Made by a program: the position numbers and the translations under genes
The notes under the pieces: generated by a model
The model's input: only the letters and a program-made list of their open reading frames with translations
Told to the model about the DNA's origin: nothing
The model's database searches: none
In this document: positions 7,379 through 39,683 of the stretch, piece after piece
How the letters are laid out: the number at the start of each line of letters is the position of its first letter
How positions within the stretch are numbered: the stretch's first letter is position 1
From: an uncultured Chloroflexia bacterium
GTDB lineage: Bacteria > Chloroflexota > Limnocylindria > QHBO01
DNA: 64,000 bases
Assembly: GCA_963839635.1 (NCBI GenBank)
Contig: CAWIVT010000008.1
Location: 303,917 to 367,916 of the forward strand
Direction: 5' to 3'

Positions 7379-8077
7379 TCAGGTAGCCTCGCGGCTGATC
7401 GCTCGGAGCATGGCCTCCGCAGCCCGGTCCTCCGGCGTCGCCACCGCCCGACGGTTGGCGATGAGGTCCTCGATCGCGGCCACCTGGACGAGGATCCCCG
7501 ACTCGATGTGCATCGGGACGGCATTGCGCCTGAGCCGATCGTAGTCGTCGCCAGCGGCCGTCTCGGTGATCGCACGCAGGTGCTTGTCCATGCCGGTCGC
7601 TGCCAGGTCCTCCCGCGCCGTCGCGAGGCGCCGCTTGGCCACCTCGGTCCCCGCATGGCAGACCACGATCTCGCGTCCGACGGTCGTCGGCGAGCCGTGT
7701 GCGGCCTCGGCGAGATCGCCGATCAGCACGAACGGAACGCCGAACCGGCGCAGCCGGCGAAGGATGTGCACCGGGCTCGTCCGGCGGTTCGTCGCGTTTC
7801 GCCCGAGCGCAAGTTTCGTCCGCTGGGGGTGGTTGAGGCGCAGACGATGGCGAATTGCCTCGAGGTCCACCGCCGGACCGATGGGTTCAACGGTGAGCTG
7901 GTGGCCCGTGGCCTCCAGGAGCGCGAGCAGTGAGGTCGTTCGGGGGATGACCGTTCCGGCCTCGATCCTCGCGACGCTCGGCTGGGGCATGCGGGCGGCC
8001 CGCGCGAGGTCGTTTTGCGTCATGCCCGCACGCCTGCGCGCCCACCGGATGCTTCGTTGGATGGCTTTGGCGTTCAC
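7379..8077 (-). CDS. XRE-family HTH transcriptional regulator with C-terminal uncharacterised (possibly nucleotidyltransferase-like) domain
   Basis: N-terminal MTQNDLARAARMPQPSVARIEAG is an HTH_XRE motif. C-terminal FGVPFVLIGDLAEAAHG block. GTG start at 8077 sits just downstream of palindromic operator-like repeats. Confidence 0.7.
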   Translation of the reverse strand: MNAKAIQRSIRWARRRAGMTQNDLARAARMPQPSVARIEAGTVIPRTTSLLALLEATGHQLTVEPIGPAVDLEAIRHRLRLNHPQRTKLALGRNATNRRTSPVHILRRLRRFGVPFVLIGDLAEAAHGSPTTVGREIVVCHAGTEVAKRRLATAREDLAATGMDKHLRAITETAAGDDYDRLRRNAVPMHIESGILVQVAAIEDLIANRRAVATPEDRAAEAMLRAISREAT

Positions 8078-8078
8078 T

Positions 8079-8124
8079 CAGCGAATATATCACTAACGAT
8101 ATAACCGCTGACAGTTTCAGACGG
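8079..8124. promoter_or_regulatory. AT-rich palindromic operator-like motif copy 1 (CAGCG-AATATATCACTAACGATATAAC-CGCTG) directly upstream of XRE gene start
   Basis: Inner inverted repeat TATATC/GATATA with a 6-nt spacer. Outer inverted repeat CAGCG/CGCTG. AT-rich island in a GC-rich genome. Confidence 0.5.
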
Positions 8125-8200
8125 CGGCGCTCCAAGGGCGCGCGAGGGCTCTACGGCGTTTGCGCCCACCGGACTGCTCGTTGATGGCCTTCGCGCCCGT

Positions 8201-8246
8201 CAGCGAATATATCACTAACGATATAACCGCTGACAGTTTCAGACGG
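8201..8246. promoter_or_regulatory. palindromic operator-like motif copy 2 (identical 46-mer)
   Basis: Exact repeat of copy 1, 122 bp away. Confidence 0.5.
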
Positions 8247-38011: not shown

Positions 38012-38146
38012 GGGTTCGATGCACCGCGGAAACGAGTTCCAGTGTTCGGAGCCTACGCGCACAGTCCCGATCGGCCATGGCGAGAAAGTACCGACGCTCG
38101 GTGGGGGCGTCCCTCGCCACCATTCGCCAATGTATCGGCGGCGCGG

Positions 38147-39585
38147 CTAGCGGGCGTAGCGGATTCGGCCGCCGCGTCGCTCCTTGTTGAGGCGACGGTT
38201 CAGGTGCAGGCCCTCGAGGACGAACTCCGCGGCGGAGGCGATCCCGGCCGGCGACTCGCCCGCATCGAGCCGAGCGATGGCGGCCCGCAGCTCGGGCACC
38301 GAGGCGGCCAGCTCACCATGGGCGCGCGACGGCACGAGCTCACCGACCTCCGCCTCGAGGCCCTGCTCCTCGAAGCGCTCGATCAGAGGCATCAGCTCGG
38401 ACAGAGCGAAGTGGCGGTTGAAGACGTTGACCACGGCCCGTGCCACCAGCTTCTCGACCACCCGGTCCTCGCGCGTCTCGTCGCCGAGCGTCTCGAGCTC
38501 GATCTTGCCCGCCGTGGAGGCCACCACCGCCGGCAGGTCGCTGATGCGGGGCGCGGCGGCCGGCTCGCCCGAGCCGCACGGCGCGCTTGAGCGCGGCCGC
38601 GGCCAGCGTCTCGTGGTTCGCGATCGTGACCCGCACGCTGACACGCCGGAGCGCTGGCTGACCTCCGACGAGCGTCGCGCCAGCTGCGACAGCTCGGCCA
38701 CGACCTCCTTCATGAAGCCCGGCACCTGCACCGGGACCGATCCGTCCGGCGTCGCGCATCGTCGAAGGCGGCCGACTCCGCCTCCATGATCGCGATCTCG
38801 GTCGACGCTCTCCTCGGGGTAGTGCGTCCGGATCTGCGCGCCGAATCGGTCCTTGAGCGGCGTGATGATCCGGCCGCGGCTGGTGTAGTCCTCCGGGTTG
38901 GCGATGGCGATCACGAACAGGTCGAGCTCGAGGCGCACGCGGTAGCCGCGCACCTGGACGTCGCGCTCCTCCATCACGTTGAGAAGGCCGACCTGGATGC
39001 GCTCGGCCAGATCCGGCAGCTCGTTGAGGCTGAAGATGCCCCGATGCGTCCGCGGCAGCAGCCCGTAGTGGATCGTCAGCTCGTCGGACAGGTAGCGCCC
39101 TCCGCGACCTTGACCGGGTCCACCTCGCCGATGAGGTCGGCGATGCTGATGTCGGGCGTGCTAGCTTCTCGCTGTACCGATCCGCAGCCGCCCACCAGCC
39201 GATGGGGGTCGCGTCGCCCTCCTCCGCCACGATTGCGAGCCAGCGGAGAGACCGGATGCAGCGGGTCGTCGTGGAGCTCGGTGCCGGCAACGTACGGCAG
39301 CCACGGGTCGAGCAGGCCGATGAGCGCCGCGCGCGATGCGGCTCTTGGCCTGCCCGCGCTCCCCGAGCAGGATGACGTCCTGGCCGGCCAGGATCGCGTT
39401 CTCGAGCTGCGGCAGGACGGTCTCGTCGTAGCCGAGGATGCCGGGCAGGAATGGCTGCCGGTCGCGGATCTGCTCCAGCAGGTTGGCCCGCAGCTCCTCC
39501 TTGACCGTCCGCGACCGATAGCCCGCGGCGCGCAGCTCGCCGAGAGTCAGGTCGGGCGGCTTCTCGTGGCTGGGTCATGTCATCG
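38147..39585 (-). pseudogene. ChlI/BchI-like (Mg-chelatase-type) AAA+ ATPase, split across at least three frames
   Basis: Walker [17 protein letters not shown] lies in a frame that has no start codon. The central VQVRGYRVRLELDLFVIAIANPEDYTSRGRIITPLKDRFG resembles ChlI. The 412-aa ORF at 38340-39578 is an Arg-rich wrong frame. No VWA partner gene follows. Confidence 0.55.
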
Positions 39586-39646
39586 AGCGTAGCACTCAGC
39601 CCCAGGGACCGCCGATTCGCGGGTCCCCCGCACGTCGGCCGCGGCT

Positions 39647-39683
39647 GTCAAGGGATATATCACTAGCTGATATGACGGTTGAC
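39647..39683. promoter_or_regulatory. palindromic operator-like motif copy 4 (GTCAAGGGATATATCACTAGCTGATATGACGGTTGAC) ~60 bp upstream of the ChlI-like gene
   Basis: Core ATATATCACTA...GATAT and outer GTCAA/TTGAC inverted repeat. Lies in the 112-bp gap between the VirB11-like and ChlI-like genes. Confidence 0.4.

Follow-up and report, generated by a model that had tools for sequence, protein, structure and literature searches.

We analyzed a family of short AT-rich palindromes, four copies of which lie in a 64-kb stretch of DNA (hereafter the window; 64,000 nt) from an uncultured Chloroflexia bacterium assigned to the Limnocylindria. One copy abuts the start codon of a gene for an XRE-family helix-turn-helix (HTH) regulator, and the same arrangement recurs in the independent orthologues of that gene that we collected. 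Our preferred reading, to which we give a probability of roughly 0.6, is that the copies belong to a class-specific family of protein-binding quasi-palindromes comparable to repetitive extragenic palindromes (REPs), and that their probable cognate is the XRE protein, which would be autoregulated and has a nucleotidyltransferase (NTase) fold in its C-terminal part.

Architecture and distribution of the element

An earlier, sequence-only reading of the window had picked out the four palindromes as AT islands, and both points held: all four copies are present where it placed them, in DNA with a measured GC content of 69.1% (it had put the figure at about 70%). Copy 1 spans 8077-8112 (core 8086-8103), copy 2 spans 8199-8234 (core 8208-8225), and copy 3 spans 10386-10421 (core 10395-10412), all on the minus strand, while copy 4 at 39647-39683 is left without an assigned strand. 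With up to three mismatches allowed, TATATCACTANNGATAT gave six strand matches in the window, corresponding to three sites, against 0.02 expected, and ATATCA-N3-8-TGATAT gave two matches against 0 expected. Copy 3 departs from copies 1 and 2 at a few positions. Copy 4 has a 7-nt center, 1 nt longer than the others (TATATCAC-TAGC-TGATATG), and arms GTCAA/TTGAC; a position weight matrix built from 91 independent elements found no additional ungapped copy in the 64 kb and gave no ungapped match to copy 4 itself.

Beyond the window we found about 150 copies, all of them intergenic. A genome scan with an exact pattern, using one genome per species, returned 37 loci, 32 of which come from metagenome-assembled genomes (MAGs) titled Chloroflexota, Chloroflexia, or Limnocylindria. 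Three of the remainder are evident chance matches (Vibrio, Pedobacter, and a Phycisphaerae MAG), and the other two lie in one Steroidobacteraceae-labelled MAG that may be mis-binned. The element is almost confined to Ca. Limnocylindria (Chloroflexota). One MAG, CAWHEV01, contributed 13 exact matches, and a relaxed pattern found 18 copies in about 96 kb of its sequence. A metagenome scan, which fixed just one GTCA box and the two core hexamers, yielded at least 91 non-identical elements on high-GC contigs; counts given below as being of 91 refer to the elements among the metagenome matches listed. The consensus, ctGTCA-gcggw-TATATC-RN-TA-NY-GATATA-wccgc-TGACag, is a quasi-palindrome of 36-40 bp with four conserved boxes (GTCA, TATATC, GATATA, and TGAC), N5 spacers between outer and inner boxes, and a 6-bp center, RN-TA-NY.

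Conservation within the family is position specific. At positions left free by the search, TAT carries about 2 bits, GTCA 1.4-1.6 bits, and the inner arms 0.4-1 bit, which is not the pattern of neutral repeat decay. Besides a protein operator, the sequence-only reading had suggested a shared cis-RNA element, with arm covariation as a way to tell the two apart. Watson-Crick pairing of the inner arms, counted over the 91 elements as observed against expected, was 43/43.4, 50/49.5, 34/38.7, and 51/52.1, which is the chance level given by base frequencies, with no covariation. Predicted hairpin energies vary from -9 to -23 kcal/mol. No Rfam 15 family matched the 64-kb window at gathering score, a terminator scan called none of the four window copies, and the consensus contains no T-tract. 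That scan did call a canonical intrinsic terminator 1 kb away, at 9237-9265 (minus strand), downstream of a trypsin-like gene, with a 12-bp GC-rich stem followed by TTCGGTTTGG; ordinary terminators are therefore in use in this organism. The internal asymmetry of the element (its TAGTG half) has no polarity relative to the adjacent gene, with 17 forward and 16 reverse orientations at 5′ ends and 17 forward and 26 reverse at 3′ ends, and we rejected the idea that the TAGTG half points to the downstream gene.

These results bear on the possibility that the element acts as an RNA or single-strand hairpin, that is, as a transcribed stem-loop serving termination, mRNA stability, or cis-regulation. 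Perfect copies do fold well (-16 to -23 kcal/mol), and many copies lie about 45 nt past stop codons or in convergent spacers, as is typical of terminators. However, arm pairing is at chance, many copies fold weakly (-9 to -11 kcal/mol), and loop and stem sequences are conserved beyond what pairing requires; with no Rfam family, no T-tract, and no polarity as well, we consider a hairpin improbable. The lack of covariation, of a U-tract, and of an Rfam match favors a protein site over an RNA hairpin, and the evidence points to a double-stranded protein-binding site with four contact boxes spaced about one helical turn apart.

The palindrome is not perfect, and its departure from symmetry is systematic. 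The bases flanking the invariant central TA are complementary in 5 of 91 elements, compared with 27.6 expected, and the next pair outward and the bases just outside the core likewise avoid complementarity. The center is obligately asymmetric. A more specific rule, that each site has exactly one CAC half, was an artefact of the first search pattern, as a less biased scan also shows AG/GT centers; after that rule was dropped, symmetry avoidance alone holds.

Copies within one genome differ on average at 5.8 of 36 positions and copies from different genomes at 7.5, a weak signal on which we rejected a recent burst of identical copies. Genome-specific variants occupy the free positions, for example in L174 (9689, 9975, 15809, and 20525) and in the pairs L013/L022, L016/L033, and L036/L040 (numbers with the prefix L denote related loci). 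Near the XRE gene of DASVEQ the left half reads TATAGC or TATCGC, and the center dinucleotide is AG in two MAGs and AA in one other. Such variants suggest either that the elements coevolve with the local protein or that the copies evolve in concert. An arm extension, GAAACTGTCAG, recurs among several other copies. On a metagenome contig of 33% GC (L126, 2789-5950), a 29-bp tandem satellite with a TATATCAYTACTGATATA core matched the core pattern; it belongs to an unrelated low-GC organism and has no relation to the Limnocylindria element.

The XRE gene and the element at its start

The XRE gene occupies 7379-8077 on the minus strand and encodes 232 aa. The identification of its product as an XRE HTH regulator was borne out, as Pfam finds an HTH_3/XRE DNA-binding domain at residues 10-58. 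A Pfam search gave no match for the remaining ~150 residues, and a fold search assigned the C-terminal domain to the nucleotidyltransferase fold, with similarity to MenT1 and TM1012. The catalytic motifs of MenT/AbiEii nucleotidyltransferase toxins are hG[GS] and [DE]h[DE]h; judged by sequence alignment, the [DE]h[DE]h dyad does not appear to be conserved in the family, which reads IGxLAE...GRxVEV with a single nearly invariant Glu that is displaced in the window protein. We infer that this domain may be a dimerization or ligand-binding module. More than 300 homologues were found, and all taxon-bearing source names among them are Ca. Limnocylindria or Chloroflexi. The recognition helix residues Q32, A36, R37, I38, and E39 are invariant across homologues, and because the recognition helix and the core boxes of the element are invariant over the same divergence, we count this as support for the XRE protein as the binder. 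One related locus, L003, contains a split pair at 8382-9207, an HTH_31 gene (114 aa) and a DUF6036 nucleotidyltransferase gene (165 aa), 0.8 kb upstream of a fused XRE-NTase gene; no element lies upstream of this pair, which may be an unfused ancestor or a paralogue.

The link between element and gene was examined in contigs encoding XRE orthologues of 57-99% identity, together with orthologues met in the pattern scans. In 14/14 independent orthologues, the right half of the element, TGATATAWY, ends 6-8 nt before the ATG or GTG. In the window, copy 1 reads GTCAGCGGTTATATCGTTAGTGATATATTCGCTGA on the minus strand and is followed immediately by the GTG of the XRE gene (8077). Both TGATATAAT and TGATATATT resemble an extended -10 element, and in copy 1 TGATATATT lies 6 nt before the start codon. 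Given this spacing and the lack of a Shine-Dalgarno sequence, the simplest reading is that the mRNA would be leaderless and its promoter covered by the palindrome, which would then act as an overlapping operator. Only the -10-like half survives in L173, and the right arm is lost with the spacing retained in L176-L179; these patterns suggest that promoter function is the most constrained part. The half-site was said to resemble a lambda operator, and it does contain TATCAC, as lambda operators do.

Autoregulation of the XRE gene is the natural reading of this arrangement. By occupying the palindrome, a dimer of the XRE-NTase-fold protein would occlude the promoter of its own gene and so provide negative autoregulation, with the right half of the element doubling as the extended -10-like promoter. 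A second copy nearby would permit cooperative binding.

Such a second copy exists in the window, although it does not sit immediately upstream of the gene as had been described; only copy 1 does, and copy 2 lies 122 bp farther upstream. The two are identical at 47/47 positions over 8078-8124 and 8200-8246 (repeat family D5), including 11 nt of flank, and are contained in a 122-bp tandem duplication whose remaining part has diverged. In that diverged part, downstream of copy 2 at 8126-8198 (minus strand), the opening ~45 nt of XRE coding sequence persist as a decayed relic; an nhmmer model of genuine XRE 5′ ends recovered it (E = 0.0025), and it was also aligned. After copy 3, likewise, come a GTG and a relic similar to the start of an L026-type XRE gene. 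On these alignments, copies 2 and 3 are best described as relics of a duplicated XRE promoter with the first ~45 nt of 5′ coding sequence. The element region of copy 2 is still identical to that of copy 1 despite its decayed relic, which suggests selection or gene conversion; the site might, for instance, serve as an auxiliary operator 122 bp upstream of copy 1. Copy 2 is also kept in L001, a relative that is 96-99% identical. As a side observation, the flank of copy 1 (8113-8125, minus strand) holds GCCGTCTGAA, the 10-mer of the Neisseria DNA uptake sequence, and the flank of copy 2 (8235-8247, minus strand) only CCGTCTGAA; the match is almost certainly a coincidence.

Duplication around this gene is not limited to the window. 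In L002 and L011, two to three units of element plus relic, all oriented alike, precede the XRE gene with 1.5-5 kb of different genes between them, and arrays of two to three same-orientation copies occur upstream of XRE in three genomes overall. Each genome compared has its own gene order around the XRE gene. These features raise the possibility that the element is a recombination core like lox or dif, with inverted arms of ~15 bp around an asymmetric 6-bp center, that shuffles modules around the XRE gene. The architecture fits, as does the rarity of symmetric centers, and copies lie at the junctions where gene order varies. However, no recombinase gene was seen near any copy, the centers vary within one genome and would therefore block strand exchange by a tyrosine recombinase, and the array relics are truncated gene duplications rather than clean site-specific junctions. 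We regard this explanation as highly improbable.

Dispersed copies and their gene neighborhoods

Copies away from the XRE gene are found mainly at the ends of genes. In the metagenome set, non-XRE elements occupy 23 convergent, 29 tandem, and 6 divergent spacers, whereas background gene pairs on the same contigs number 64 convergent, 214 tandem, and 48 divergent (chi-square ~14.7, 2 df). Convergent spacers are thus enriched twofold and hold 40% of non-XRE copies; the nearest stop is a median 45 nt away from such a copy, and the nearest start 120 nt. The genome-derived set shows the same trend, with about 12 convergent and 5-6 divergent cases, and the divergent ones include the XRE promoter 2-3 times. 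The elements are flanked by housekeeping genes that are unrelated to each other, including those for enoyl-CoA hydratase, LigD, NADH dehydrogenase subunits, an aminoacyl-tRNA synthetase, DNA polymerase I, and a penicillin-binding protein. Copies placed in this way, past gene 3′ ends and in convergent spacers, are distributed like a REP-like repeat and not like promoter operators.

This distribution also bears on the regulon that had been proposed from the window, in which the palindrome would be the operator of the XRE gene, a trypsin-like protease gene, and a cluster of ChlI-like and aldehyde dehydrogenase genes. Part of that proposal is well supported by the comparisons, namely the probable autoregulation, through the constant link to XRE orthologues, at all of which the element overlaps the predicted promoter. 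The window and L001 both retain an intact copy 3, with its GTG, ahead of the protease gene (in L001 the center carries a single substitution), and a few non-XRE genes keep an element 32-35 nt upstream across genomes, such as the enoyl-CoA hydratase gene in L004, L037, and L170. Against a regulon that would unite the protease with the ChlI-like locus, copies 2 and 3 are XRE-promoter relics, and the protease is missing at this position in L002, where the methyltransferase gene is followed directly by a 290-aa gene and copy 3 is absent as well. Copy 3 may be a captured XRE-type promoter that now drives an inserted protease gene, in which case it gives no evidence for an ancient regulon. Copy 4, one of the dispersed copies, is absent at the equivalent spacer in the Limnocylindria loci compared (56 nt in L041-L050; L051 and L052 carry an extra gene), and no element was found anywhere in the 131 kb from these comparison loci, much of which is near-duplicate. 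Most copies in the family lie past stop codons, and their neighbors share no functional theme. We therefore consider the small regulon quite unlikely. The sequence-only reading had itself named many copies placed at random with respect to genes as evidence against a regulon, and the situation we find is close to that: the copies are many, and they are not placed as promoter sites.

Several elements are kept at orthologous sites, with flanks 72-87% identical and the adjoining spacer scrambled; besides the enoyl-CoA hydratase case, the pairs L022/L069 and L101/L143 retain orthologous elements. Elsewhere sites have decayed or vanished. The L051 site orthologous to the L015 element carries an internal 10-nt deletion, and one XRE-promoter relic in L002 lacks exactly the 36-nt palindrome. 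Taken together, these comparisons suggest that sites are constrained where they persist, yet are also gained and lost.

Gain and loss raise the question of mobility. We ruled out a miniature inverted-repeat transposable element (MITE; 50-500 bp, with terminal inverted repeats and internal conservation), as no longer unit is present: conservation ends at about 38-40 bp, flanks beyond ~40 bp are unconserved, and no target-site duplication could be defined. At the window sites matching the L015 and L012 elements, gene content differs, and, with no clean empty site, no insertion boundary could be defined. A broader alternative is a selfish mobile palindrome, REPIN- or MITE-like, that is spread by an unidentified enzyme and whose link to XRE is secondary, for example through promoter capture. 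The copies are indeed multiple and strictly intergenic with a 3′-end bias, their number differs greatly between genomes, gains and losses are lineage specific (copy 4, the decayed L051 copy, and the precise 36-nt absence in L002), and center and arm variants are genome specific, with sites often lying where gene content differs. On the other hand, there is no conserved flank, no transposase or recombinase family is among the 25 most frequent Pfam families listed for flanking genes, copies within a genome are barely more alike than copies between genomes, and position-specific conservation and the retained orthologous sites indicate selection. The XRE-start link, at 14/14, is moreover too constant for chance capture. 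We find this alternative rather doubtful.

Under our preferred reading, the dispersed copies would probably be bound by the same XRE protein, and their role could be that of a roadblock or insulator, a topological one, or merely the tolerance of an operator that has spread. A stronger version holds that the protein is deliberately placed ~45 nt downstream of genes, especially convergent ones, as a roadblock, bidirectional terminator, insulator, or topological barrier, with its level set by the same site in its own leaderless promoter and with the asymmetric center being functional, for example against cruciform extrusion or for asymmetric binding. We hold this version to be unlikely. A replication fork trap like Ter was set aside, as polarity is mixed within 3 kb and the sites are spread across several large contigs.

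Several observations weigh against the reading that we prefer. A symmetric homodimer does not predict the asymmetry of the center (5 versus 27.6 expected), and a repressor with the majority of its sites at gene 3′ ends would be unusual. A two-hexamer sigma-70 scan does not call copy 1 a promoter, which it misses because the element has no -35, and most dispersed copies have C instead of T at the last -10 position. Copy number is uneven, with 18 copies in ~96 kb of one MAG and none in the 131 kb, much of it near-duplicate, from other genomes. Site decay and precise deletion fit mobile or dispensable DNA. Finally, gene calls in the related loci came from a crude codon-usage caller trained on these loci.

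The element is associated with gene-content breakpoints, in that copies often sit where one genome lacks a 0.4-1.2 kb gene present in others. For the L015 element (4265-4300), the window has an unannotated coding stretch of ~1.2 kb (46271-47515), and for the L162 element (726-761), compared with L041-L052, polyketide cyclase and guanylate cyclase genes are present in L041. A further indel polymorphism lies directly beside copy 3: compared with the window at ~10350, L001 contains an additional 1,045-bp segment (6629-7674) with a second trypsin paralogue, 36 nt from copy 3.

The genes neighboring all window copies lie on the minus strand. Copy 3 lies 37 nt after the methyltransferase stop and had been placed in the leader of a secreted trypsin-like protease gene. 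That gene is confirmed at 9289-10107 (minus strand) by a codon-usage gene call and a Pfam Trypsin match (E = 1.6e-53), and the copy lies 278 nt upstream of its likely start at 10107. Between them, a small open reading frame (10272-10384, minus strand) with high GC at third codon positions ends in …ESCLALADFSPCDYSYRLDRQEVIDWIDEVAGNHWNQ* and lacks a canonical start codon; it may represent a small gene or only a fragment of one. Copy 4 lies between a gene for a 295-aa conserved hypothetical protein and an AAA+ (ChlI/MoxR-like) gene, 68 nt upstream of the ATG of the latter at 39578, where ~60 bp had been estimated. Two labels given to genes of this cluster were not supported. The VirB11-like protein has no Pfam match at E < 0.001 and is a conserved Limnocylindria hypothetical, and the ChlI-like window protein likewise lacks Pfam support at E < 0.001, its AAA+ orthologues giving only faint Sigma54_activat/AAA_5 matches. 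The methyltransferase gene (10459-11237), the guanylate-cyclase/AAA_16 gene (11237-14395), and the AAA+ gene (38147-39578), all on the minus strand, look frameshifted. The first two are intact in L001 (96-99% identical), and the frameshifts in the window are probably indels from long-read assembly and not marks of pseudogenes.

Relation to known systems and significance

Our literature search found no paper on Limnocylindria palindromic elements or on DUF6036 and no relevant precedent for a REP paired with a regulator. The closest known systems are compared below. The Cro-cI operators of lambda and 434, and other autoregulated XRE repressors, share with the present case an HTH_3 protein and a palindromic operator over its own promoter; further examples are HipB with TATCC-N8-GGATA, the restriction-modification C-proteins, and ClgR. 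We take the recognition helix of the XRE protein, QPSIARIE, to resemble QQSIEQLE of 434, and, as in lambda, cooperative binding would become possible with a second site close by. The spacing of the half-sites is 3 bp shorter than in lambda, however, and conserved GTCA boxes, which lambda and 434 do not share, lie one helical turn outside the core. In place of the dimerization/cleavage domain of cI there is an NTase-fold domain, and most sites are at gene 3′ ends. The RDRM sites of Deinococcus, which are bound by the XRE repressor DdrO, occupy promoters of a coherent DNA-repair regulon. The Limnocylindria element differs in its unrelated neighbor genes and its preference for convergent 3′ ends, and no IrrE-like protease partner was seen.

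Proteobacterial REP/BIME and REPIN elements, which RAYT mobilizes, are bound by IHF and gyrase. The Limnocylindria element resembles them as an imperfect palindrome of 35-40 bp that is multi-copy, strictly extragenic, and found in excess past stops and in convergent spacers; copies also flank a dedicated protein gene in L009 and L002. It has no GTAG head, the outer box being GTCA, and its hairpin pairing shows no selection; the gene linked to it codes for an HTH-NTase protein rather than a Y1 transposase, and copy numbers seem to be lower and to vary. For Tus-TerB of E. coli and RTP-IRI of B. subtilis, the intergenic sites are dispersed and asymmetric, with one or two in the promoter of the protein's own gene, which is autoregulated. 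The likeness is in a putative DNA-binding protein with dispersed asymmetric sites, one of them at its own gene; the difference is that here polarity is mixed within a few kb and the sites fall on several large contigs and not in one terminus region, and no finding ties them to replication. The MenA/MenT and AbiEi/AbiEii systems come to mind through the MenT-like NTase fold and the split HTH and DUF6036 pair of L003, and AbiEi autoregulates via inverted repeats. In the Limnocylindria protein, however, HTH and NTase fold are fused, the [DE]h[DE]h dyad does not appear to be conserved in the alignment, and there is no conserved adjacent toxin or antitoxin partner.

Ca. Limnocylindria are abundant soil and freshwater Chloroflexota. 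To our knowledge they are represented almost only by MAGs, and we know of no experimental study of their gene regulation. The element and the XRE protein together offer a concrete candidate pairing of site and protein that is conserved across the class, and the XRE promoter probably exemplifies leaderless promoters of the extended -10 type in this lineage. The comparison also carries a caution, as regulons should not be inferred from the motif copies of a single window. The family combines its properties in an unusual way: selection acts on protein-contact boxes and not on pairing, gene 3′ ends and convergent spacers hold an excess of copies, and a symmetric center is strictly avoided. Should the dispersed sites prove functional, they would represent a rare instance, in bacteria, of sites for a sequence-specific protein organized around gene ends; otherwise, the family would be an autoregulatory operator that is spreading as a REP-like repeat.

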